Source: a virus
Strand: one strand, 5' to 3'
DNA: 64,000 bases
IMG/VR virus record: IMGVR_UViG_3300035701_000003
Shown: positions 6,674 through 37,642 of the stretch, in pieces
Position numbering within the stretch: position 1 is the first letter of the stretch
How the letters are laid out: every line of letters starts with the position of its first letter
Position numbers and translations under genes: made by a program
The notes under the pieces: model-generated
The model's database searches: none
What the model was told of the DNA's origin: nothing
The model's input: the letters and a program-made list of their open reading frames with translations, nothing else

Positions 6674-8305
6674 ATGAATACTTGGTATCTAATAGGATGT
6701 AGTGCTAAGAAAGCATCTACCCCTCAAACACCTGATTTATTATATCAAGGGCCTCTTTTTGTACAGCCTTTTAAGTATTGTGAAAAGATATACAAACCGG
6801 AAGAAGGAGATAGAATATTCGTATTAAGTGCAAAGCATGGTTTATTACATTTAAGACCTAATCTGTCCTATATGGAGGTTATTGAGCCTTATTCTTTTGA
6901 TTTAACAAGGGCTAACAAAAGTACTTTGAGGAAGTGGGGAGGTATGGTGGCTATACAACTTGATCAATATATTTCGAAATATCAGATACCTTATCCTCTT
7001 AAGTTGGTATTTTATGCACACCGTCACTATAGAGACGCCCTAAAACCTTTTATAGAAGAACTCCAGATATCTGTGGAAGTTCCCTTACTGGGGGTAGTAA
7101 GAGGAAAACAAGTTAAATATTGGAAACATAAATTAAATGATATGTTTGAAGGAGAATCAAAGGAAAGTTGGAGAGACCATCCTGTGATGTTAACTCAAAA
7201 GGGGGGCGCTTATATAAAATCTGATTACAAACCACAAATTGAAGGAAATTTTATGAAAGCGTTGTCCGAAATGAAATTACAGAAAAAATCAAATACTGTT
7301 AATTCTAAAGGAGGCTACTTTGGGGTTAGAGCCATCGACCAATTCCCCGCAAAGTTCATGGAATATATTAACTCTTGTGATTCCTTTACTGATGTTACAG
7401 CTGGTTCCGGACTTTTCCCCCGCTATCTGGCTAGTTTAGGTAAAAAAGTTAATATATCTGATAGGTCTTATTACTCCTATTTAATGCTTCGAACCTTATC
7501 CCGTAACCTTTCCTTTACAGGATCTTACGAAGACTGGTTAAAAGATACTTATGGACAGATAAAGGGCATTTTAGAGACTCCTTTTACAGGTTATTTGTGT
7601 AATAATGAAATCTTATCTAAGAAATTTTCTTTGGAGACTGCTAAATTTATTGATTCTTATTGTAGATTTTATCAGAGTAATGTTTTAATGTTATATGCGT
7701 TAGGTAAAGTATTCTCTACCAAGTTTAGTTTTAGGGGCTTAGGGTGGTGTAATAAAACTACCGCTGGGTATAAGAGTAACGAAGTTACTCCAAGTACTAT
7801 GGCGGAATGGATTATAAGAACTGCTAATTTAATTATGTTAAGATTAACTGAACTGGACGAACGTTTCTCCGTTCCCGATATATTCTATGGAGATGTTTTA
7901 CAAGCCTTAGATTCTTTTAAAGTTAAGGATGGTATGGTTTATGCAGACCCCGCCTGGCCTTGGAGCGAAAAATTTCCTGGGACTAACCCTTATATATGGC
8001 AGACATATGATATTTCCAGCATCTTGACACAGACTAAGATTCCTGAAGTAAGATTTTGGCAAAGAGAAGATACTATAGATTCTATACTAGAAGAAATTAA
8101 AGGTTGGGGGGATAGGGCTTTCGAAAGAGGGGCAAAATACTTTGTAGTATGCAATCAAGATACTAATTACCCAAGTTGTGAAGAAGTATTTGATTGGTTT
8201 AGTAAGAAATTTAATACTGTTGAAATTATTTATAATTATGAAGATTATAGTAGCGCAGCTGGTAGAAAATATACAACCGGTTGGGGGATATATACCAAGG
8301 AATAA
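6674..8305 (+). CDS. Fusion: N-terminal YaaA/DUF6884-like domain plus C-terminal alpha-class (D12/Dam-like) DNA adenine methyltransferase
   Basis: LIGCSAKK...LYQGPLF...FVLSAKHGLL at the N-terminus; motif I DVTAGSG and motif IV YADPAW. Confidence 0.65.
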   Translation: MNTWYLIGCSAKKASTPQTPDLLYQGPLFVQPFKYCEKIYKPEEGDRIFVLSAKHGLLHLRPNLSYMEVIEPYSFDLTRANKSTLRKWGGMVAIQLDQYISKYQIPYPLKLVFYAHRHYRDALKPFIEELQISVEVPLLGVVRGKQVKYWKHKLNDMFEGESKESWRDHPVMLTQKGGAYIKSDYKPQIEGNFMKALSEMKLQKKSNTVNSKGGYFGVRAIDQFPAKFMEYINSCDSFTDVTAGSGLFPRYLASLGKKVNISDRSYYSYLMLRTLSRNLSFTGSYEDWLKDTYGQIKGILETPFTGYLCNNEILSKKFSLETAKFIDSYCRFYQSNVLMLYALGKVFSTKFSFRGLGWCNKTTAGYKSNEVTPSTMAEWIIRTANLIMLRLTELDERFSVPDIFYGDVLQALDSFKVKDGMVYADPAWPWSEKFPGTNPYIWQTYDISSILTQTKIPEVRFWQREDTIDSILEEIKGWGDRAFERGAKYFVVCNQDTNYPSCEEVFDWFSKKFNTVEIIYNYEDYSSAAGRKYTTGWGIYTKE

Positions 8306-8309
8306 CTAA

Positions 8310-8855
8310 GTGAAAATCCAGACTGAAATTAGAAATAAGATTAAAGAACTTACTAAAGAAAGAAAAGCCCTACTGTATAATGAGGAACTCGGTAAGGTAC
8401 AAAAAGAATATCGGGATAAACTAGACGCTTATTATAAAAAGATACGCCCCGAGAAAGATAAGATTGATGAAGAGATTGAGACTCTACGGAAAGAACTAAG
8501 TAAACGTAAAGATGATAGACTTCCTATTATAAGTAAGCGTTTGGAGGACTGGTTGCAAGGGTATACTCGCGGCGCTACCTTCGGGCCTCAAGGACTAAAG
8601 ATAAAAGAAATCTTAGATGATAAGGAAAGATTTGTGCTAGTGTATAATCCCGGTCATACCTATTGGGCAAGGAGAGGAGAATTTCATTATGGTAGTAGTA
8701 GTTATTGGATAACTGATACTTTTATACAAAAACAGTGGCTTGGTAATACTACTAAGATAATGGGTACTGAAGTAGAAGGAAGATTAACTAAAGAAGTAAA
8801 GAAAAAACTATTAGAAGTGTTAGAGGAATACAAAAAAGTAAATAAAATAACGTAA
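8310..8855 (+). CDS. Hypothetical protein with N-terminal coiled coil
   Basis: 181-aa ORF, GTG start, in operon. Confidence 0.55.
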   Translation: MKIQTEIRNKIKELTKERKALLYNEELGKVQKEYRDKLDAYYKKIRPEKDKIDEEIETLRKELSKRKDDRLPIISKRLEDWLQGYTRGATFGPQGLKIKEILDDKERFVLVYNPGHTYWARRGEFHYGSSSYWITDTFIQKQWLGNTTKIMGTEVEGRLTKEVKKKLLEVLEEYKKVNKIT

Positions 8856-8899
8856 AGTAATAGGGCGTGTGTAATAAATGAAAATAGAACGGGGTATAT

Positions 8900-9595
8900 A
8901 TGGCTACTAAAACAGAAAAAGAAAAAGCATTAGAAGCTACTATAGCAAGTCTGGAGAAGCAATTTGGTAAGGGCACTATAATGCAAATGGGTAAAACTCC
9001 TATAGAAAAAATAGGAGCTATTCCTACTGGTTGCATGTCCATAGATGAAATTACTGGTATAGGTGGAATTCCCAGAGGAAGAGTAACTGAGGTATTTGGG
9101 CCGGAGATGTCTGGTAAAACTACAATGTGCCTTCATATAATAGCACAAGCTCAGAAATTAGGGGGTATGGCTGCTTTTATTGACGTAGAACACGCTCTTG
9201 ATTTAAATTACGCTTCTAATATCGGGGTTAATGTAACTAGTTTATTGATATCTCAACCAGACTATGGAGAACAAGCTCTTGAAGTAGCAGACGCTTTGAT
9301 AAGAAGTAACTCTGTAGATATTGTTGTAGTAGACTCCGTAGCAGCTTTAGTCCCAAAAAGTGAATTAGAGGGAGAAATGGGAGACTCCACCATAGCCCTT
9401 CAAGCACGTTTAATGTCTAAAGCTTTACGGAAACTTACGTCTAATGTTAATAAATCTAATACAGCTTTAATATTTATAAATCAACTTAGAAGTAAAATTG
9501 GGATTATGTTTGGTAATCCCGAATGTGTTGATCCTTATACTACGGAGGTTGAATTGGAAGTTCCCGAAGATATTTATAAAATATTTTTTGAGTAA
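8900..9595 (+). CDS. recA: RecA N-terminal fragment fused to a 23-aa N-intein
   Basis: Walker [58 protein letters not shown], then CVDPYTT...FFE stop. Confidence 0.95.
9524..9592 (+). mobile_element. N-terminal half of a split intein (IntN, 23 aa)
   Basis: Cys1 directly after FGNPE (the mycobacterial recA-b site); block A-like [13 protein letters not shown]; ends at TAA 9593. Confidence 0.85.
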
Positions 9596-9653
9596 ACCCT
9601 TGAATTTTTTCCTCCTATACTTATATATCATAAGTAACAACGGGAGAAAAAAA

Positions 9654-10619
9654 ATGGATTTATTATTAAAATATTTTAATATTGTTATAACGAAGAATTT
9701 TTTGGTAAAACTTAAGTTTAAGAATGAATTTAAAGTTAAACATATGAAAAATATTAGGAAAATTATTCCGAAAGTAAATGGGCCTTCATTGGAATATTAT
9801 CAATATCATTTGGGGGGAGACACCGGAAGACAGATTTTTAATGAAAGAAAGAAATATTTCGGGTATCAAAAATTAGCAGAACTTGTAATAGCGAATAAAC
9901 TTTATGATAATGACGTACAATTAGCTGGAATACAAAAGAAAGTTTTACAAAATAATCAAAATATTAAAAAAGGTGTTATAGAATCTCAGCCTAAAACTTG
10001 GCATAATCCAGATTATGTATCCTCTTTGTTGAAAAAAAGAGCAATATCTATGAGTAAATTAGATTTTTCCTTAAATAAAAGTAAAAAAGCAAAAGAGTAC
10101 TGGGCTAGCGATAGGGCTATAGCCCACCGAGAAAAGATTTCAAAAAATCACAAAGAGGGTAAAAGTTTCTCTTTAGTCAAATGGCAAATAGAAAATGGAG
10201 TAAAACATAGTTCTTCTTTATTTCTAAGAAAAGGAAAAAATTTAAATTATTTAGAATATTTGTTTAGTTTGATGTTAGATGACTTTAGTATATTTTATGA
10301 AATAGAACAAAATATTAAAATTGATAATATTAATTATTTTCCAGATTTTTTTATACCGAGATTGCGTTTAATAATTGAATTATTTGGTGATGTTTGGCAT
10401 TGTAATCCTTCTTTAGTTAAAGTTTTTGAAAATAGTAAAGATATCTCTCCTTTTAAAAAAGATCCTAAAATAGTATGGCAAAAGGATAAAGAAAGACAAG
10501 ATACTTTTTTAAAAGCCGGTTATCGTTACTTGGTTTTTTGGGAAAACGAGTTTTCTTTTGGCCGATTAGAAAGAATTTATAAATTTTTAATAAAAATAGA
10601 AAAGGAATTACATGGATAA
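9654..10619 (+). CDS. Free-standing Vsr/DUF559-like PD-(D/E)xK endonuclease, probable homing endonuclease
   Basis: YEIEQNIKIDNINYFPDFFIPRLRLIIELFGDVWH...KDKERQDTFLKAGYRYLVFWENE; GGGAG RBS before ATG 9654. Confidence 0.8.
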   Translation: MDLLLKYFNIVITKNFLVKLKFKNEFKVKHMKNIRKIIPKVNGPSLEYYQYHLGGDTGRQIFNERKKYFGYQKLAELVIANKLYDNDVQLAGIQKKVLQNNQNIKKGVIESQPKTWHNPDYVSSLLKKRAISMSKLDFSLNKSKKAKEYWASDRAIAHREKISKNHKEGKSFSLVKWQIENGVKHSSSLFLRKGKNLNYLEYLFSLMLDDFSIFYEIEQNIKIDNINYFPDFFIPRLRLIIELFGDVWHCNPSLVKVFENSKDISPFKKDPKIVWQKDKERQDTFLKAGYRYLVFWENEFSFGRLERIYKFLIKIEKELHG

Positions 10620-11010
10620 GAAGTATATAAAAGTTAAAATTACTTTAGGAACTTTATTTAAAAAATTAGGCGTGAAAGATTTTAAAACTCCTTCTGTTTT
10701 ACCAGTTGATACTTTAGGAATTAGAATAAAATCTTTTGATACTGCATTATCTCAGGATGTTTTTTCTTTAATAAAAGATTTAGTAGTAAAAGCTCCAGTA
10801 CCTTATCATTTTATTCTAAAGTCTCTGAATGGACAAGAATTAAAAACATCTAGTCATCATAAGTCTTATAAAGATAAAGAATGGGTTGAATCATTTAAAA
10901 GATTTGAGTTAGAAGAAGATCATCTTAAAGTCGAAAAACCTTTAGATATTGTAGATTTGACAGTGAAAAATACTGAATGTTATTATGCTAATGGTCAATT
11001 AAACCACAAT
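10612..11010 (+). mobile_element. C-terminal half of a split intein (IntC, 133 aa)
   Basis: Ends His-Asn at 11005-11010; the +1 nucleophile is Thr at 11011. Confidence 0.85.
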
Positions 11011-11421
11011 ACTACACCTGGCGGTAATGCTCTTAAATTTTATGCTTCTATGAGAATTGATATAAGGAAGAAAACGGCTATTAAACAAGGAGATCGTACT
11101 GTTGGTAATATAACTAAGGTAAAAATTGTAAAAAGTAAAGTATCTCCTCCTTTTAGAGAAACTGAGGTTAGTATTATTAGTCCTTATGGAATAGATATAA
11201 TAGGGGATATATTAGACAAGGCGGTAGATTTTAAAGTTATAAAGCAAGGCGGGGCCTGGTTTACTTACAAAGAAGATAGATGGCAAGGTAGGGATTCCGT
11301 AACGGACACTTTAAAGAAGGATCCTATATTTTTAGATCAGGTAAAATCCGAAGTATTAGTAGCCATGAAAGAAAATAAGGAAGTTGTTAAAGAAAAAGAA
11401 GTTTTACCACAATTAGTATAA
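10612..11421 (+). CDS. recA: 133-aa C-intein fused to the RecA C-terminal fragment
   Basis: AAGGA RBS; block B LKTSSHH; block F/G VDLTVKNTECYYANGQLNHN; then TTPGGNALKFYASMRIDIRK...KSKVSPPFRE...GAWFTY. Confidence 0.95.
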   Translation: MDKKYIKVKITLGTLFKKLGVKDFKTPSVLPVDTLGIRIKSFDTALSQDVFSLIKDLVVKAPVPYHFILKSLNGQELKTSSHHKSYKDKEWVESFKRFELEEDHLKVEKPLDIVDLTVKNTECYYANGQLNHNTTPGGNALKFYASMRIDIRKKTAIKQGDRTVGNITKVKIVKSKVSPPFRETEVSIISPYGIDIIGDILDKAVDFKVIKQGGAWFTYKEDRWQGRDSVTDTLKKDPIFLDQVKSEVLVAMKENKEVVKEKEVLPQLV

Positions 11422-11422
11422 C

Positions 11423-11986
11423 ATGAAAATACTTTATAATCCAAATTTACAAGAAGTTTACGAAGGCTATACACAAGCTGTAGAAGACTTATCTTATAAC
11501 ATTTATACTCATTACTTTGTTTTCGAAGATGTAGTTAAGGAAATAGAAGATATGAGGGTTAAGTTACTAAGAGCTCCCGAAGACGATATGGCTAGTTTTA
11601 ATACTCTTTACGCAGAAGCCCAAAGTTATCATAGTAGAGCCTGTGGAGTATTGATATCCTTTATAGACGAAAGAAGATTTTGGAGAAGATTAGAAATTAT
11701 AGGCGATAAACTCTATGCAAGGTCCCGGAACTTTTTATTAGGTACTCCTGAAATACAGGACCTTCGCAACCAAGCTCTACAGAACGCTAAAGTGGACTCT
11801 AAACTTCAATTACTTTTATCTTTGATTAGTGTTATAACGGGGGCTTTATCTGATATGAAAGATTTAATAGAAATTGTACAAGTGAAAATTGATGAATTAA
11901 ATAATATAATAACTAATATGAGCCGTCAACAGAGAGTAACAGAATCTCTTATAGGTTTAGGTTATCCCGTTAGAGGCCGTAAATAG
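11423..11986 (+). CDS. Helical/coiled-coil hypothetical protein (possible recombination mediator)
   Basis: 187-aa helical ORF right after recA; function inferred only from position. Confidence 0.4.
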   Translation: MKILYNPNLQEVYEGYTQAVEDLSYNIYTHYFVFEDVVKEIEDMRVKLLRAPEDDMASFNTLYAEAQSYHSRACGVLISFIDERRFWRRLEIIGDKLYARSRNFLLGTPEIQDLRNQALQNAKVDSKLQLLLSLISVITGALSDMKDLIEIVQVKIDELNNIITNMSRQQRVTESLIGLGYPVRGRK

Positions 11987-29640: not shown

Positions 29641-32600
29641 ATGATACCTTCACGAAGTTTTTATAGTATTTCCCACAGAACGAGAGAGATACTAAATTCT
29701 ATCAATTCTGTATTGAAAAACAATGAACCATTACCTATTTTATCTACCATAAAAAGCGAACCTCCGATTGTTAAATCCTCCCCTGATAAGATTAATTTTA
29801 AAGATGCTATAGAGAGTAAGCGATTTTCCTATATAGGAATGTCTCTATACAAGGGAGCAAGCGAAGATGGTAATATAGGTAGAATATGGGTTAAGAAAGA
29901 GATTATAGACCCTAAGACGGGTGAGAAGCAGGAATGGTTAGTAACGTATACTACAGACGAAGATGACTTAGTTTATTCATTGGCAAGCAAGAGAATGAAG
30001 AAAATTGCTGACTACGGCCCTTTCGGAGTAGACGAACTTAAACATACTCAAGAAGGTATTGATAAAGCCGTTCAAGGTTTAGATATGCCTGAACTCGAAG
30101 ATACTGTTAACCCTCTCAAAGTACCTACTACTGACGCAGAAGCGAGAGATAGTACGGGGCATCAAGTACAGATGGGAAATGTAGTAGAGAATGAATTTAA
30201 TAAGCAAGGCGAAGTAGTTGATATATTAGGGCCTGACAAATTAGTTGTTAAATGGATGGATAAACCTTATAGTGAAGGCGAGATGGGAGATACTATAGCA
30301 TCAAGTGATATAGTAGTGGTTGGCTCTCAGAAGACAGCTTTTGATTACCGTGAAAATCTAATGAAAGGCTATAAGAAGCCATTGCCCGAATTGCAACCTG
30401 GTGATAGGGTAGAAGATACAAGAACAAAGAATATTGGTCTGGTAAAGGATATACAAGGAGATCTTGTAGAAGTAGATATGGGCACACATTCAATGAAAGT
30501 GCCTATAAGCGCAATAAACAAGCTGAGTGCTTTAAACAAACATAGTGTGAATATACAGATTATACCTGTTACTAGCTGGCAAAGAGGTAAGGTTGATCCT
30601 ACCGAATATGATGCCACTACTGATACTATAAGGGTTAGAGGGGATTATGATGTAAATAATGATCCTGCCGGATGGATGGTACACGAAAAGGTACACGCAA
30701 CATTAGCTGCAGCCGGTCAACAAAACAACTCAGGGAATTACCCCGATAATCCTATAGAGGAAAGAGCTTATAAAACACAATTTAATTATTTGAAATCTTT
30801 AGGACATACTTTTGATGATATATTTCAAATACCTACTATGGAACATAAAGCGCCTTATAGAAATATATTTGCAAAATGGTGGAACGCATCTTCTCCTCAA
30901 CAGCTTCCTACTTTAAGAACAGCCGGACAACCTAAACCGCAGGATATACCTATTGCGCCCGGTATCAAATCCAAGAATATTACAATGGATGAATCAGGTG
31001 GTGGAGGAACAGCGAAGGTTACAGTAGAGTTCAGTGACGTGAATAAAGGTTTGCAATTTTATCAAGAAGAAGTAGGACAACCACAAGCTCCACCTAAACC
31101 TCCTGAACAACCTAAAGAAGAAGAGAAACCCGAAGCCTCCGCGGAACAAGGACCCCCTCCCGTGCAAGGTCCTCAGTTACCTAATTTACCTACAGCGCGT
31201 TTGAAGTTTAATTTACAAGTTATCAGTAAAGTAGTCCACAGAAAAGACGGTTGGCATGTAGTTAGCGAAGAAGGAAAGAACTTAGGAGGCCCTTACCCTG
31301 AGAAAAAGAAGGCTATTAAAAGACTAAAACAAGTAGAATACTTTAAACATCATGGAAGCGCTGATGTAGTTAAAATGGATGTTCCATTTTTAATTAGGGA
31401 AATGGAATACTCTAAAGAAGATGCTAAAACTGATCAAGACTTACATAAAGCTACGGAGAATATGATTGATGAAGGCGATAAAGTATTAGAAATGAGTGAT
31501 TACGATAAGATATTTGATAAACCTAAGAAAGGTTCATTAAAGTTATCTTGGCAAGAACAAGGGCCAGGTGAAGATTTTCATCAAAACTTAGTGGATGAAG
31601 CCTATGATTTATGGCAGAAACCAGAGAATAATTGGAATAAAGACCAGTTTCTCCAGAACCTTCCTTCTCAAGCACACAGAGACGCTGTAATATTAGGTAA
31701 TCTTAACTATCAAGTAGGTAATGGGGGTTTTGAGCAATGGTTTGGTAATGATTATGGAGATAGAGATGCTGAATATTTAATAGGTACTTTACTTCCTGCT
31801 ATCGGTACCCCATCCGCTAAGAGAGTCATGTACTTAGTAGAGGAAGCTTACGACCTACGTGAAGAATATGATCCTTACGAAGGAGAACCTAACGAAGACG
31901 CCTCGAACGATTTAGACAATCTAGATAGCGAATATTATGCTATAGATGATGAGTTTATGAAAGATGTCAACCAATATTTATATAAACTAAAGATTCAAGG
32001 TTCATTAATATTCTCCTCTTCTGTAAAACAAGCAGCGTCCGATATTCATGATTATTTAGCAGAGAATGTAAGAGATACTGAAGATTTAGATGAAAGAGAT
32101 GTACAAAGAATAACAGAAAGAATATTATCACAACCATGGTGTAACTCTTCAAAGGAAAAAGTATTAAAACAAGTAAGAGATTGGATAGGATTAGAAAAAG
32201 AATCCTCAGCTGACGAAATACATACGTGGATAAGAGTTAAAAGAGTATTAGATGAAATGGGCGTAGACGAAACTACAGCAGCCAAATTCGTTGAAGATGT
32301 CAAAAAGTACTGGCAGGAATATATAGAATTACCTGATGAACAGATATATGATGCTTATAAAGCTTGGAAAGATGAAGAAGGCCCCAGAAAAATGACTGAT
32401 GAAGATTGGGACCAAAGATTCGAAAATGATGCTTTCAACAGAGAACAATTTGGTAGCAAAAAAGCTTCCTTAAAATTCTCACAAACAGAAGAAGATTATG
32501 ATTTTTATAATGATAATTATAGATTCAATTCTGGAGAAGAGCACGAGTGTGAAGACTGTGGAGCACCAGGAGCTAAATTATATAACACCTTCGGCCAAAA

Positions 32601-34425
32601 ACTTCAAATAGGAGGTTTTAGTAGTGATTTAGAGTTATGCGATAATTGTCATAAAGAGAGGTTTCCAGAACACTGGCGTTACAAGAAAAAAGCATCTTAC
32701 ATATATAAGCCCGGTGAGCAGATAGGTTATCATGGTAGGGAAGGCCGTATAGTTCGAGAAGATAATGGTGGTTACATTGTTTACTTTACGGATACCAACG
32801 AAGAACAATGGTTAGATAAAGAGGAATTACTCGAGCAGGAAGGATTAAAAGAACCAGAAAATGAATTTGATAAAGTACTCAAACTAAGAGATAGAGCAAG
32901 AGAAAGGAGAGACACAGATATGTCTAAAGAAACAAATTTTACCTTATGGTTTAACAAAAATAAAAATGAAACTTCCTATTGGGAAGGTTATTCTAATTTT
33001 ATTAAAACAGCTGCTCAACATAAACAGTTCAAAGATTGGATGAAAGAGAAGTTCGCAGATGTAGTAATAGAGGACGAACCCGAAACTAAGGATGGGGCTG
33101 CCTATGAATTACCTGATGGAAGTGGTTTTATGACTGGTACCGTTGGAAGTAAACAAGCTTCAGGAGTAGCCCTTAATATATTACCAGACCTCTTTGAAGA
33201 TAAGTTCGCGATGAGTAAGATACCTCCAGAATTAAGATTACTTCGCTCCAATGCTAAGCAAGCTCTTAGTAAAGTAGTAGAGCATATGCAAGTATTAGGA
33301 CGAGAGAGTACCCCAGCCGACTTCCCAATGGAATGGTTTTATAAGGATCAAGGTTATGTAGTTCCAGATAGTATAGGAGAGGTAAGAGCCCAATTACAAG
33401 AGATTATAGATTACGCCAACCGCGCAACTGGTAATAATTTCTATGGTAATATGAAGTCTTCTTTTAAAGTAATATCAAAGAGTGGGTTGCAAGGAGTTGA
33501 AATTATAAGAGAACTAATAGATGGAAAGATAAATAAATATGGTTACATCAATGAAAAGAACCAGTTTGTGGTGCTACCTAATTATAGAGAACTCCGTATA
33601 AACAGTCAATTAAATAGGCCTGATACAGGTGAAACAGTAAAAGTGATCAAATACGTTGATGTTTCGTTAGGTAGCACTGCTAATATGGTAGAGACTCTTA
33701 TGAAGAAGAAAGCAGGCGATGAAGCAGATGATTTAGCCGAAAAAGAGTGGTCTGATAAAGGGGAAGAAGATTGGAGTAGAAAACCCTCAGAAGGATTCAT
33801 ACCTACAAATAGAGGAATGCAGACACCCGACGATATAGTAAGTGATTTAACCTTTTTGAATTATGCTTATAATAGAGATAGATCTCCAGAAATAACTCCA
33901 GAGCGTTGGGCTAAGGTATATGGTCCCAACACAGAAACTATGGAAATGCGTTATCAAAGAGAAAAAGCTTCTGGCAAAACATTTACTAAAAAGGATATAA
34001 ATAAGGCTTTTATAAAATACGCTATTGATGTTAGCGATGAAATACCTCCAATGGGATGGGATGCTAGTACTCCTGGAAAACCAGCTGGGGCAGGAGCACC
34101 CAAGGAACCTATGCAGGGATTACAGGATAAGGATAAAGAACAAGAAGAAAAGAAGAATGTAATTTATGATAGTTCTAGTGATACAGGACCTCAATTCCAA
34201 ACTACTATTAATCCAGCTACAAAAGAGGTTACAGTGAAGTTTATGGATTCCCCTCAAAAGGAAGCTCTTGATGATGCAATGAAGACTCAAATGCAAAGCC
34301 CTCAGCTTCCTACGTTAAATACTACTCCACAGAATAATCAAGGAACACCAGGTACTCCAGGTGGACCGGGAGCAAACGAGGAACCGAATCAGTTTAAGAA
34401 TCAACAAGTACCAGTAAGTTTTTAA
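29641..34425 (+). CDS. 1594-aa multi-module (polyvalent/polyprotein-like) protein: KOW/SH3-like repeats, zincin HExxH domain, DMP19/DUF4375-like domain, Zn ribbon
   Basis: VHEKVH...PIEERAY; LNYQVGNGGFEQWFGN; CEDC...CDNC; GKNLGGPY...KRLKQVEYFK; modules separated by K/R-x-A/S sites. Confidence 0.7.
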   Translation: MIPSRSFYSISHRTREILNSINSVLKNNEPLPILSTIKSEPPIVKSSPDKINFKDAIESKRFSYIGMSLYKGASEDGNIGRIWVKKEIIDPKTGEKQEWLVTYTTDEDDLVYSLASKRMKKIADYGPFGVDELKHTQEGIDKAVQGLDMPELEDTVNPLKVPTTDAEARDSTGHQVQMGNVVENEFNKQGEVVDILGPDKLVVKWMDKPYSEGEMGDTIASSDIVVVGSQKTAFDYRENLMKGYKKPLPELQPGDRVEDTRTKNIGLVKDIQGDLVEVDMGTHSMKVPISAINKLSALNKHSVNIQIIPVTSWQRGKVDPTEYDATTDTIRVRGDYDVNNDPAGWMVHEKVHATLAAAGQQNNSGNYPDNPIEERAYKTQFNYLKSLGHTFDDIFQIPTMEHKAPYRNIFAKWWNASSPQQLPTLRTAGQPKPQDIPIAPGIKSKNITMDESGGGGTAKVTVEFSDVNKGLQFYQEEVGQPQAPPKPPEQPKEEEKPEASAEQGPPPVQGPQLPNLPTARLKFNLQVISKVVHRKDGWHVVSEEGKNLGGPYPEKKKAIKRLKQVEYFKHHGSADVVKMDVPFLIREMEYSKEDAKTDQDLHKATENMIDEGDKVLEMSDYDKIFDKPKKGSLKLSWQEQGPGEDFHQNLVDEAYDLWQKPENNWNKDQFLQNLPSQAHRDAVILGNLNYQVGNGGFEQWFGNDYGDRDAEYLIGTLLPAIGTPSAKRVMYLVEEAYDLREEYDPYEGEPNEDASNDLDNLDSEYYAIDDEFMKDVNQYLYKLKIQGSLIFSSSVKQAASDIHDYLAENVRDTEDLDERDVQRITERILSQPWCNSSKEKVLKQVRDWIGLEKESSADEIHTWIRVKRVLDEMGVDETTAAKFVEDVKKYWQEYIELPDEQIYDAYKAWKDEEGPRKMTDEDWDQRFENDAFNREQFGSKKASLKFSQTEEDYDFYNDNYRFNSGEEHECEDCGAPGAKLYNTFGQKLQIGGFSSDLELCDNCHKERFPEHWRYKKKASYIYKPGEQIGYHGREGRIVREDNGGYIVYFTDTNEEQWLDKEELLEQEGLKEPENEFDKVLKLRDRARERRDTDMSKETNFTLWFNKNKNETSYWEGYSNFIKTAAQHKQFKDWMKEKFADVVIEDEPETKDGAAYELPDGSGFMTGTVGSKQASGVALNILPDLFEDKFAMSKIPPELRLLRSNAKQALSKVVEHMQVLGRESTPADFPMEWFYKDQGYVVPDSIGEVRAQLQEIIDYANRATGNNFYGNMKSSFKVISKSGLQGVEIIRELIDGKINKYGYINEKNQFVVLPNYRELRINSQLNRPDTGETVKVIKYVDVSLGSTANMVETLMKKKAGDEADDLAEKEWSDKGEEDWSRKPSEGFIPTNRGMQTPDDIVSDLTFLNYAYNRDRSPEITPERWAKVYGPNTETMEMRYQREKASGKTFTKKDINKAFIKYAIDVSDEIPPMGWDASTPGKPAGAGAPKEPMQGLQDKDKEQEEKKNVIYDSSSDTGPQFQTTINPATKEVTVKFMDSPQKEALDDAMKTQMQSPQLPTLNTTPQNNQGTPGTPGGPGANEEPNQFKNQQVPVSF

Positions 34426-35149: not shown

Positions 35150-37642
35150 ATGGGAAGGATCATAATACCCGAATTCAATAAACCAAAGAGTACAGCTCCC
35201 GCTTGGATTGATGCTGAAGCTCTTAAGGAAGCCAGTTCACAAGAAGCTGCGGAAAGAGAAGAGGTACTTTCCAAGATCTCTTCCCAAAGCGAAGACCTTG
35301 TAATTTCCTATATTGCCCCATCTACGGGGAAGATATATTTTGCTGGCGAACCTAGATTAGTTGTTCAAGCAAGAATGGCTAAGGCTAGTAATCAACCCGT
35401 AGAATTCACAGACCCTGAAACAGGGGAGAAATTACATTCCTATAGAGTATCTAAAAAGATTAGCCATATTGATAGTCTTAAATATTCTAATGAAACGGAG
35501 GTAATGCCTCGAGTCGAAAAAACATCAGGGGTATATACTAATACCTTTGTGGATAGGCATGTAGTCTATAAAACATTGGATGCGTTACAGAGATATGCTT
35601 CACAGAATGGGTTATCTTTAGCAAGAGCCCGTTACCTGAAGGGGGAATACGGCCAGAAGAAACTAGGGTCTGAATTAATAACTATAGCTAAGATACAAGC
35701 GGAACTAGAGTGGAGCTACGGTAGAAACCAAAAAGGTAGAATATTCGCTAATGCTGAAATAGATACTGCTGGTAAGATACAAATGCCTAAAACTTTTAAG
35801 ATAGCATCCGGCGAGGAATTTGAATTTAATAAGGATAATATTAGATTAATGGAGAAGGATTCAACATTTAGAGAGTTAATTGCTATTAAACCGAAAAAGA
35901 GTGACGTGCCTCAAATAAGGAGACCCGATATATCTAACTTTATGGCAACGTCTTCTATGAAGACTGGAGGTCCTGTTCCTACTAATGTACCTCCTCAGAA
36001 TACTAATACTACTAATCCTCAGGAACAGTTCCAGCCTGGTAGCCAATATATTAACCCTGCTGATAATAAAACTTATACTGTTAAGAATTATGATCCTCAG
36101 AAGGGAGCAACTGTTACATCACCAGAAGGCCAGGATATGTTAGTACCACAGGATCAAGTTCAGAATCTTAAACCAGTTATGAAAACATCCGCTTATGAAT
36201 TTTCTGTAGAGACTATGGCGGACGACCTTTTACGAAAACTTTCTAAGAAGGATAAAAAAGAAGAAGATAAAGGTGAGAAGAAGGATAAAAAAGAAGATAA
36301 AGATGATGAAGATGATATGGTTGATAAACTGACGAAAAAGGATAAGAAAGAAGATAAGAAAGAAAAGGAAAAGGATAAAAAAGAAGAGAAGGGCGAAAAG
36401 GACGAAAAGGAAGATTGTTCAGACCATATGTCTTCTCTTAAAAAAAAAGATAACGCCGTCCTCGAAACAAAGTCTTCGAGAGTAGCCAATATGGGAAGAA
36501 GATGGTTAGAGATAAGAGATGAAATACGTAGTAAACAAGCTTCTCAACGAACCGCCACATCAAAACATACTTTTCAGGATGAAGTAGTTGAAGAACTAAC
36601 TAAAAGAGGTTATAAAGCCTTAAAATCACTTGAGGTTAAACCCAACGAAGCCGGAAGAGACCCAAAGACCAATATACCTACCAAGAGTTCCGGAGACGTG
36701 GAAATAGGAATGACTGACTTCCCTGACTTTACTAAACCTATACAAGAAGCACAAGCGGAAATAATTAAAGATAGAGAACACTTCACTAATGAAGATAAAC
36801 TGCCAGTATACAATATGAGAAGAAACGAATTGAAGAAGTATATGGATGATGAAAAAGGTGGAGAGAAGAATTACGGTTTAAGCGAAGAAGCAAGAGGTGA
36901 TAAAGACTTTAAGAACCCAGATCCTTTTAGAAAGAAATCATCAACGGATGAGGATATAGCAAATGCACTTATCAATAAGACCGCAGCTGATGAAGAAGAA
37001 AAGGTAGATGTAAGACCTATTCAATATAAACCTCAAAAGAGAGCACCTGGGTTGGAGGAATTCAAAGAGCCTGAAGTTATACCAGAAGCTGAAGGTAAAG
37101 CAAAGGAAGCCATTACAAAGTTCCGGAAGGTACAAGCTGACATTGAACAAACTAGGAAGCAACTGCAGGAAGCTATAGCTCCAATTCAAAAACAACTAAT
37201 GGATACTCAAAAACCTTTTCAGGAAGATTTAGTAAAGAAACAAGAATCCTTTTCTAGTTACTTGGAGATGATTTATACCCAGTTAGGAGAAACCAAAGAT
37301 AAGATCGCAGCCTATGGCGATAAGATACTAGCTATAGTGGAGAGAGGCAAACGAGAAACTAAATCTCCCACGATAGCCCAGTTGTTAAAGAGATTAGAAG
37401 AAGTAGAACCCGAAGTGTTTACAGCTGTTCAGAATGTAAAGGAAGCTATGGAAAATGAACATGTGAGTAATGTATTAGAAAGATACTTATATGATTATGA
37501 TATAAGTAAAGAACATGAGAAGAAGAAAGTTATAAGAACAAGTGACGACGAAGGTTCCTTTAATGAAGCATTGAAAGTATTGAAAGTAGCTTTAATGGGA
37601 TTACTTAACCTCAACGATAAATTGCGATTCGAGGAGGTATAA
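35150..37642 (+). CDS. 830-aa probable head/scaffold-associated protein with a K/D/E low-complexity tract and coiled coil
   Basis: KKDKKEEDK tract about 36240-36420; many K/R-x-A/S sites (KEAS, KTSA, KQAS, RTAT, KTAA); GGAG RBS. Confidence 0.5.
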   Translation: MGRIIIPEFNKPKSTAPAWIDAEALKEASSQEAAEREEVLSKISSQSEDLVISYIAPSTGKIYFAGEPRLVVQARMAKASNQPVEFTDPETGEKLHSYRVSKKISHIDSLKYSNETEVMPRVEKTSGVYTNTFVDRHVVYKTLDALQRYASQNGLSLARARYLKGEYGQKKLGSELITIAKIQAELEWSYGRNQKGRIFANAEIDTAGKIQMPKTFKIASGEEFEFNKDNIRLMEKDSTFRELIAIKPKKSDVPQIRRPDISNFMATSSMKTGGPVPTNVPPQNTNTTNPQEQFQPGSQYINPADNKTYTVKNYDPQKGATVTSPEGQDMLVPQDQVQNLKPVMKTSAYEFSVETMADDLLRKLSKKDKKEEDKGEKKDKKEDKDDEDDMVDKLTKKDKKEDKKEKEKDKKEEKGEKDEKEDCSDHMSSLKKKDNAVLETKSSRVANMGRRWLEIRDEIRSKQASQRTATSKHTFQDEVVEELTKRGYKALKSLEVKPNEAGRDPKTNIPTKSSGDVEIGMTDFPDFTKPIQEAQAEIIKDREHFTNEDKLPVYNMRRNELKKYMDDEKGGEKNYGLSEEARGDKDFKNPDPFRKKSSTDEDIANALINKTAADEEEKVDVRPIQYKPQKRAPGLEEFKEPEVIPEAEGKAKEAITKFRKVQADIEQTRKQLQEAIAPIQKQLMDTQKPFQEDLVKKQESFSSYLEMIYTQLGETKDKIAAYGDKILAIVERGKRETKSPTIAQLLKRLEEVEPEVFTAVQNVKEAMENEHVSNVLERYLYDYDISKEHEKKKVIRTSDDEGSFNEALKVLKVALMGLLNLNDKLRFEEV

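Follow-up and report, generated by a model that had tools for sequence, protein, structure and literature searches.

A phage recA gene fractured by an unevenly split intein of predicted trans-splicing activity and by a free-standing, probably Vsr-like endonuclease gene

Results

A fractured recA locus

We analyzed a 64,000-nt stretch of DNA from an uncultured phage (IMG/VR virus record IMGVR_UViG_3300035701_000003), referred to here as the window, and conclude with a probability of roughly 0.88 that its recA is a fractured gene in which a class 1 mini-intein, located in the codons of the L2 loop, is cut at its S1 loop by the gene for a free-standing Vsr-like (EDxHD-type) endonuclease, so that RecA would arise by protein trans-splicing. 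All parts of the locus lie on the plus strand, and recA is divided between two open reading frames (ORFs) at 8900-9595 (231 aa) and 10612-11421 (269 aa). The first encodes the 208-residue RecA N-extein (8900-9523), ending in FGNPE within the L2 DNA-binding loop, followed by the N-terminal intein piece (IntN, 9524-9595), a tail of 23 codons (9524-9592) that begins with the nucleophile Cys1 and is closed by TAA at 9593-9595. The second ORF starts 5 nt downstream of an AAGGA motif. Its initial 133 residues (IntC, 10612-11010) comprise the remainder of the HINT domain, with Ser80 and His83 in block B, Asp115 in block F, and His132-Asn133 in block G, and are followed by TTPGG and the remaining RecA sequence, a C-extein of 136 aa plus stop (11011-11421) whose first residue, Thr134 of the ORF, is the Thr+1 nucleophile. 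The 321-residue endonuclease ORF (9654-10619) lies between the two halves, the three ORFs occupy three different frames, and the IntC start and endonuclease stop overlap by 8 nt. The GC content of the cassette was 26%, compared with 33-37% for the exteins, which, like the existence of uninterrupted orthologues, speaks for a mobile element. An earlier note, made from the sequence alone, had described the N half with its FGNPE end, 23-residue tail, and TAA at 9593, the separately initiated ORF at 10612 with its ribosome-binding site, block-B stretch, and terminal His-Asn, and the Thr+1 junction; the ORF layout agrees on each of these points. The charge bias that it assigned to the two pieces was also found, with 7 Asp/Glu and 1 Lys in the 23-residue IntN and 8 Lys and 2 Asp among the first 25 residues of IntC.

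Exact restoration of RecA by the predicted excision

The N-extein ORF matched the Pfam RecA profile over positions 1-201 of 262 (E 8e-97), and the C-extein ORF matched positions 198-261 of 262 from ORF residue 131 onward, together with RecA_C. Uninterrupted recA orthologues exist (P0056-P0061), to which the N-extein is 71-77% identical, and the alignment of the C-extein with solved RecA structures starts at the residue after the splice site. Once the 23-residue tail and the 133 residues of IntC are removed, the L2-loop motif is restored with zero residues gained or lost, and the junction is the FGNPE-TT(T/P)GG of uninterrupted RecAs. We regard the excision as exact because E. coli RecA has FGNPE-TTTGG at the equivalent point. 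The window belongs to a contig of up to 177 kb. Within its 64 kb no second recA was found, and for this stretch the proposal that RecA is made only by trans-splicing would hold. A scan of IMG/VR with the uninterrupted orthologue P0060 returned more distant RecAs only.

Intein fold, split point, and catalytic residues

Searches of Pfam, NCBIfam, and PDB sequences with the intein part returned only a weak C-terminal match to Pfam Intein_splicing (positions 132-155 of 155, E 0.023, at the C terminus of IntC). The intein family is too diverged for sequence libraries, and we therefore used evidence from the fold. An AlphaFold2 model of IntC alone, computed from a 31-sequence alignment, reached a pLDDT of 95.9 and superseded an earlier model of the whole IntC ORF that was based on 4 sequences (pLDDT 55). 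The top matches listed by Foldseek for this model were all inteins or intein-like HINT domains, and VIA-align comparisons with inteins gave Z scores of 12-15 (up to 15.3) with rmsd values of 2.0-3.0 over 111-129 residues. The model of IntC is a high-confidence intein (HINT) domain in which only the first strand is missing.

Alignment with 13-15 contiguous relatives puts residues 1-13 of IntN at the N terminus, where they supply the missing strand, and shows the break to lie in a loop whose length varies. In structural comparison, residues 4-5 of the IntC model are matched by residues 11-13 in contiguous inteins. The split is thus at S1, the site used in VidaL and PolB16, and not at the S2 site of AceL-TerL and GOS-TerL. 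The atypical split with a 23-residue IntN stood as an uneven split, but only about the first 13 of these residues belong to the intein core; the last 10 (residues 14-23) form an extra acidic and aromatic tail in the variable loop, conserved in the relatives L001, L002, L003, L004, and L030.

The sequence and the modeled fold make protein splicing the most likely activity. The features of a class 1 intein that we found are Cys1, the block-B His, the block-F Asp, the terminal His-Asn, Thr+1, the HINT fold, and exact host restoration. Among 31 family members (alignment A3), His83, Asp115, Tyr124, and Asn133 were invariant and His132 was nearly so (at least 90% conserved), and Cys1 (9524-9526) did not vary among four N pieces or in any of the contiguous relatives. 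This pattern bears on the possibility that the locus is a splicing-dead relic, a recA gene broken by the endonuclease gene whose halves are useless or form a non-covalent complex through the intein pieces with no ligation. The (near) invariance of Cys1, the block-B His, the block-F Asp, the His-Asn pair, and Thr+1 across relatives at 30-60% identity counts against docking only, because simple docking needs none of it. Two properties of the intein do suit a relic: block B has Ser80 in place of the Thr of most relatives and most inteins, and the strongly complementary charges of the two pairing strands (anti-correlated at r = -0.65 over 21 members, kinship ignored) are equally suited to mere association. 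However, purifying selection acts on the two exteins as well as on the two parts of the intein (pN/pS 0.09-0.37/0.49-0.74 over all parts of the locus; 0.09/0.68 for IntN against L003), and the split persists in lineages that lost the endonuclease gene. We consider a relic very unlikely and a splicing-competent split intein the better account.

Recurrence of the split in assemblies and relatives

The 2,522-bp region was 100% identical in four other assemblies and differed by 1 nt in a fifth, and these five assemblies are independent and come from different samples. Diverged relatives (50-62% identity) retain the same split, with the endonuclease gene (L003 and L007) or without it (L001, L002, and L004). 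The fractured layout is not due to chance, because it is identical in other assemblies and recurs in diverged relatives. A census of the family in IMG/VR, resting on an alignment-based scan, comprised 80 loci, 58 of them split and 13 contiguous, with 38 distinct IntN sequences of 15-41 residues that end in stops. By these alignments, the intein is one member of a large metagenomic RecA/UvsX family, most of whose members are split; the new short-IntN intein proposed in the earlier note is not a new type. IMG/VR gave nothing in a close-match scan that used only the protein of this locus, the cultured-phage collection contained no relative of the intein, and no mention of a split intein in UvsX or RecA was found in the searchable open literature.

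These data bring close to refutation the reading that the locus is really a single contiguous intein in which an endonuclease domain is nested, its stop and frame changes being assembly or sequencing errors. The sources are metagenome assemblies of AT-rich, homopolymer-rich DNA, and in-frame endonuclease-IntC fusions are known in relatives (P0013, P0019, P0028, and P0039), both of which would favor such errors. Against this, the same 2,522 bp recurred with 0-1 differences in the five independent assemblies, three frames would have to be merged, relatives that are 50-62% identical carry stops and starts of their own at this position, and each of the 38 distinct N pieces ends in a stop.

Endonuclease gene and upstream hairpin

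The sequence of the middle gene suggests a Vsr-like (EDxHD-type) homing endonuclease, with the nuclease domain at its C terminus, that is under purifying selection. Residues 222-299 matched TIGR00632 (Vsr) over positions 42-119 of 119 at E 0.002, far below the curated cut-off; the L003 orthologue matched the same profile at E 6e-5, also sub-threshold, as was a match to DUF559 (E 0.034), and phrog_22677 was matched at E 1e-9. Along the full length, the protein and the product of the L003 gene share 65% identity (pN/pS 0.21/0.64); the protein is 30% identical (E 1e-11) to the endonuclease parts fused to IntC in P0039, against which Asp231, Glu242, Asp246, His249, and Asp283 are conserved. A phmmer search of PDB sequences found no match, and the cultured-phage collection yielded only distant Vsr-like matches. 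The earlier description of a fractured recA with an unevenly split intein and a Vsr-like homing endonuclease gene between the halves is supported by fold, catalytic residues, conservation, and independent assemblies. A group I intron that houses the endonuclease gene and is spliced out of the RNA, the arrangement known from recA of Bacillus phage 0305phi8-36, is exceedingly improbable and was rejected. Group I introns with EDxHD endonucleases are indeed found in this part of recA (PMC3239194, PMC2677866), but no Rfam family was matched at E <= 1 across 8700-11600, and the sequences on either side of the endonuclease gene code for a well-folded intein that shares the frame of the exteins.

A predicted RNA hairpin (9605-9650) precedes the endonuclease gene; in it, a U/C-rich run pairs with the Shine-Dalgarno sequence of that gene (GGGAG, 9642-9646), which lies downstream of the run. 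Folding of 9560-9680 gave -24.6 kcal/mol (z = -3.55), and 0 of 200 shuffled sequences were as stable. Hairpins upstream of such endonuclease genes are noted by Dassa et al. 2009 (PMC2677866).

Discussion

In the mechanism that we propose, the two RecA halves would be translated separately, and the acidic first strand of IntN would pair with the Lys-rich first strand of IntC, completing the HINT fold. Cys1 would then begin an N-S acyl shift, attack by Thr+1 would yield a branched ester, and cyclization of Asn133 would free a 344-residue RecA with a native L2 loop. The endonuclease would cut intein-less recA alleles of co-infecting relatives, and the whole cassette would be copied in. The hairpin over the ribosome-binding site may damp endonuclease translation, and translation of IntC is perhaps coupled to the endonuclease stop through the 8-nt overlap.

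Two further ideas concern the family and are tentative; taken together, we think them somewhat unlikely to be right. The first is that an EDxHD endonuclease gene repeatedly enters and leaves the S1 loop of the RecA/UvsX L2-loop mini-intein, and not the canonical endonuclease site, a series that would yield interleaved contiguous, split, endonuclease-fused, and re-abutted forms. The second is that, in the clade of this locus, the strand charges may be the reverse of those elsewhere in the family, with an acidic IntN and a basic IntC, and a helical tail may have been gained; the two pieces could then form a pair without cross-reaction to other family members.

The recA locus is one more case of a large, already known kind of element, and it leaves the current understanding of inteins unchanged. 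Its interest is in part practical. Inteins split so unevenly that the N piece is of peptide size are sought after for protein labeling and semisynthesis, and to our knowledge few natural ones have been characterized (AceL-TerL, GOS-TerL, VidaL, and PolB16). The locus, and more so the IMG/VR census with its 38 N pieces of 15-41 residues, is a source of tool candidates; in some N pieces of the family the strand charge is reversed, and these might be orthogonal to one another; a charge-reversed pair that does not cross-react would, if real, be useful as a new short-tag ligation tool. As predicted from sequence and model, RecA would also be another essential phage recombination enzyme that depends on protein ligation. 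Neugebauer et al. 2017 reportedly also named a "VidaL UvsX-2" intein, which we presume may belong to the RecA/UvsX family found here.

The closest precedents are the fractured genes of environmental phages described by Dassa, London, Stoddard, Schueler-Furman & Pietrokovski 2009 (PMC2677866). As defined in that paper, a fractured gene has split-intein halves around a free-standing endonuclease gene in one host gene, and the recA locus fits this definition. It shares with the cases given there a host gene in two same-strand ORFs with the intein halves at the break, a free-standing homing endonuclease gene, here probably Vsr-like, that separates the halves, a hairpin ahead of that gene, and a phage DNA-metabolism gene as the setting. 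The hosts named in the passages considered here include gp41, IMPDH, DnaE, NrdA, NrdJ, ligase, and terminase, whereas recA appears in them only as a group I intron host. The gp41-1, gp41-8, NrdJ-1, and IMPDH-1 inteins have the canonical split with a long IntN and a short IntC, in contrast to the split near the N terminus in the recA locus.

Natural inteins that are atypically split at S1 include VidaL (PDB 6vgv, 16-residue IntN) and PolB16 OarG (15-residue IntN) (PMC13014065, PMC10189870). As in these S1-type inteins, each piece of the recA intein has an ORF to itself, the first closed by a stop and the second opened by a ribosome-binding site and start. VidaL has the same split point (residue 2 of the IntC model corresponds to VidaL residue 17; Z 11.9, rmsd 2.8 A, 112 residues), and the recA intein is, like VidaL, predicted to be cysteine-dependent. 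It nevertheless belongs to a different sequence family from VidaL: a search of PDB sequences gave no match at E <= 10, and the structurally aligned residues are 16% identical. It also differs from both VidaL and PolB16 in the 10-residue extra tail of IntN and in Thr as the +1 residue. AceL-TerL, GOS-TerL, and Cat-TerL (IntN of 25-37 residues) resemble it in their short IntN, long IntC, and metagenomic phage origin, and Cat-TerL shares the HINT fold (6dsl_B against the IntC model, Z 12.0). These inteins, however, are split after the first helix (S2) and are hosted by terminase, and the Cat-TerL IntC (6dsl_B) begins at model residue 23, about 20 residues later in the fold than the recA IntC.

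The prototype EDxHD (Vsr-like) homing endonuclease is I-Bth0305I (PMC3239194). It has a C-terminal Vsr-like nuclease domain with an Asp/Glu/Asp/His/Asp set, as predicted for the enzyme of the recA locus, and it targets recA codons of the L2 motif F-G-D-P (PMC3239194), which are also the few codons on which the intein of this locus borders. Sequence similarity between the two enzymes is too low for phmmer against PDB. The vehicle of I-Bth0305I is a group I intron and that of the recA-locus enzyme a split intein; one endonuclease family appears to reach the same few recA codons by two vehicles. Mycobacterial RecA inteins (sites a and b; PMC4513877) also reside in RecA, with site b in or next to the same loop. 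Unlike the recA locus, they are contiguous, are 350-440 aa long, and occur in cellular genomes. The M. tuberculosis RecA intein is a LAGLIDADG homing endonuclease, and no sequence similarity was detected between the solved M. tuberculosis intein and that of the recA locus. By alignment, the insertion site corresponds to M. tuberculosis RecA 208|209. Site-b inteins start at residue 205-207, or at 211 in one strain (Table 1 of PMC4513877), and the site of this locus, which the earlier note had equated with recA-b, is therefore in the same loop but possibly a few residues away.

Organization of the fractured recA gene

The recA region of the window comprises three ORFs on one strand, all in different frames. 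The first (8900-9595, 231 aa) matches Pfam RecA positions 1-201 of 262 and continues, directly after FGNPE, into a 23-residue N piece with Cys first (IntN, 9524-9592), followed by the stop codon TAA (9593-9595). The third ORF (10612-11421, 269 aa) has AAGGA 5 bases ahead of its ATG; its residues 1-133 (IntC), which terminate in His-Asn, do not belong to RecA, and from residue 134 onward (TTPGG) the ORF matches positions 198-261 of the RecA profile plus RecA_C and can be aligned to solved RecA structures. Between the recA halves lies a 321-aa ORF (9654-10619), its stop and the ATG of the third ORF overlapping by 8 nt. The stop position, ribosome-binding site, charges of the two pieces, and block B stretch described in the earlier note were all right. 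Because FGNPE-TTTGG occupies the junction both in E. coli RecA and in the nearest relatives that lack an interruption, excision of the 23 + 133 residues would restore the L2 loop exactly. The insertion site corresponds to M. tuberculosis RecA 208|209 and may equal the mycobacterial recA-b site given in the earlier note; site-b inteins are listed as starting at residue 205-207, or 211 (PMC4513877). We conclude that the window recA is genuinely fractured and that it carries a split intein of S1 type and a homing endonuclease gene that is probably of EDxHD type, and we infer trans-splicing of its halves and homing of the endonuclease gene. The window RecA (8900-9523 and 11011-11418) is of the bacterial type, and its nearest named cellular relatives are Ignavibacteria RecAs (∼67% identity), a likeness that is possibly a hint to the host lineage.

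The split region is real and maintained. Its 2,522 bp recur unchanged in four further assemblies and with one base different in a fifth, all from different samples, and the same two-gene layout was found in three relatives at 50-62% identity. The orthologous endonuclease gene is present between the halves in one of these relatives (L003, a 2.7-kb JGI 3300037067 contig); the gaps in relative loci L001 and L002 measure 88 and 164 bp and hold no endonuclease gene. Across exteins, both intein parts, and endonuclease, pN was 0.09-0.37 and pS 0.49-0.74 against L003 and L001, values for which pN/pS ratios are rough because synonymous sites are near saturation. Uninterrupted RecA orthologues with the same C-terminal tail share 71-77% identity. 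The GC content is 26% for the endonuclease gene plus IntC, 31% for IntN, and 33-37% for the exteins, and the higher AT content of the cassette fits a mobile insert. An Rfam search of the recA region gave no family match, and hence no group I intron.

Identity of the intein and its split site

The sole sequence-library match of the window intein was Pfam Intein_splicing (positions 132-155 of 155, E 0.023), and a PDB sequence search with it gave no match. A HMMER search of the whole library with the 133 IntC residues matched 51 representative clusters; all those inspected were RecA/UvsX-type proteins that carry a homologous insert at this position. When IntC was modeled by AlphaFold2 from an alignment with 31 of the family's cluster sequences (pLDDT 95.9), the top Foldseek matches were all inteins, and VIA-align against PI-PfuI, Ssp DnaB, Mtu RecA, Pho RadA, and others gave Z 12-15 and rmsd 2.0-3.0 Å over 111-129 residues. 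All 31 sequences share His83 (block B), Asp115 (block F), Tyr124, and Asn133, His132 is nearly invariant, and Cys1 does not vary among N pieces; these residues make up the complete class-1 intein set, with Thr as the +1 nucleophile.

The intein is contiguous in 13-15 relatives, where it measures 134-148 aa. Aligned to these, window N-piece residues 1-13 form the first strand, and the split falls in a loop of variable length (0 to ∼13 residues among relatives). The final 10 N-piece residues are an additional tail, kept in close relatives L001, L002, and L003 and also in L004 and IMG/VR locus L030. In structural alignment, IntC residues 4-5 correspond to residues 11-13 of contiguous inteins, and residue 17 of VidaL (6vgv), the natural N piece of which has 16 residues, aligns with IntC residue 2; in the TerL-type Cat intein (6dsl_B), IntC starts only at model residue 23. 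The window intein is therefore split at S1 (VidaL, PolB16) and not at S2 (AceL/GOS-TerL), the two sites being described in PMC13014065.

The endonuclease gene

In the 321-aa ORF, the C-terminal 80 residues gave matches to Vsr (E 0.002, and 6e-5 in the L003 orthologue) and to DUF559, both below the curated cut-off. The protein is 65% identical to that of L003 over its full length and shares 30% identity (E 1e-11) with endonuclease parts fused in frame with IntC in other family members. The conserved residues Asp231, Glu242, Asp246, His249, and Asp283 are consistent with the EDxHD set reported for I-Bth0305I. That enzyme resides in a group I intron within the recA of a Bacillus phage and targets the L2-motif codons (PMC3239194), the same motif that holds the window intein; one endonuclease family seems to use this recA site via two vehicles. 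A predicted hairpin spanning 9605-9650 (z = -3.55) sequesters the endonuclease Shine-Dalgarno sequence, and Dassa et al. (PMC2677866) likewise note hairpins for such endonuclease genes.

Distribution of split and contiguous forms

Among 53 representative clusters, 32 were IntC-first (split), 15 contiguous, and four endonuclease-IntC fusions, with two of no clear class. These states are interleaved on the maximum-likelihood tree, where well-supported branches force at least eight changes, and the window groups with split forms only, in a clade of nine clusters (support 96/95). Because the cluster classes were taken from gene calls, the DNA-level census of 80 IMG/VR loci is firmer; it gave 58 split, 13 contiguous, and nine without an assigned state. 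The 38 distinct N pieces of these loci (L013-L092) fall into two groups by length. Those of 15-24 residues lie 0.13-1.26 kb from IntC, with an endonuclease gene or remnants in the gap. Those of 31-41 residues carry a conserved acidic/aromatic helix as a tail and directly adjoin or overlap the IntC gene (-17 to +10 nt); contiguous members L048 and L049 contain this helix internally. Where both strands were known (21 members), the net charge of the first strand was anti-correlated with that of its partner strand (r = -0.65, p = 0.0015, kinship ignored), mostly in the order basic then acidic, which is reversed in the window and L003.

Several relatives carry variant arrangements. In L003 (3-330), the C-terminal part of another, unrelated intein opens the RecA N piece; this part is open in frame to the contig end and terminates in Ser-His-Asn just ahead of the Thr that follows the P-loop Lys, at site c of RecA/RadA. 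The P-loop is intact in the window. Some UvsX-type relatives have two inteins in one loop with only 7 residues between them, the first after K-I-G and the second, after G-D-P-x, belonging to the family described here. Proteins P0010 and P0044 are contiguous examples, and in P0009 and P0014 the first intein is split, so that one protein opens with its IntC, followed by the 7-residue extein and the whole second intein. A Vsr-like endonuclease continues in frame into IntC with no intervening stop in P0013, P0019, P0028, and P0039 and probably in L019, L020, and L038; such a fusion may be a step from a free-standing gene to a nested endonuclease domain, at the S1 loop and not the canonical site. 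In L005 (3791-4000), the 210 bp that separate IntC from a 16-residue N piece encode a broken, out-of-frame Vsr-like endonuclease tail and are a decayed homing endonuclease gene.

Elsewhere in the window, very large same-strand ORFs (1594, 830, 1274, 1290, 1284, and 1335 aa) run from 29641 to 54040, and a PHROG search with two of them (29641-34425 and 35150-37642) gave no match. Two genes upstream of recA, a 543-aa ORF (6674-8305) bears a DUF6884 domain (E 4e-24) at its N terminus, followed by a long C-terminal remainder.
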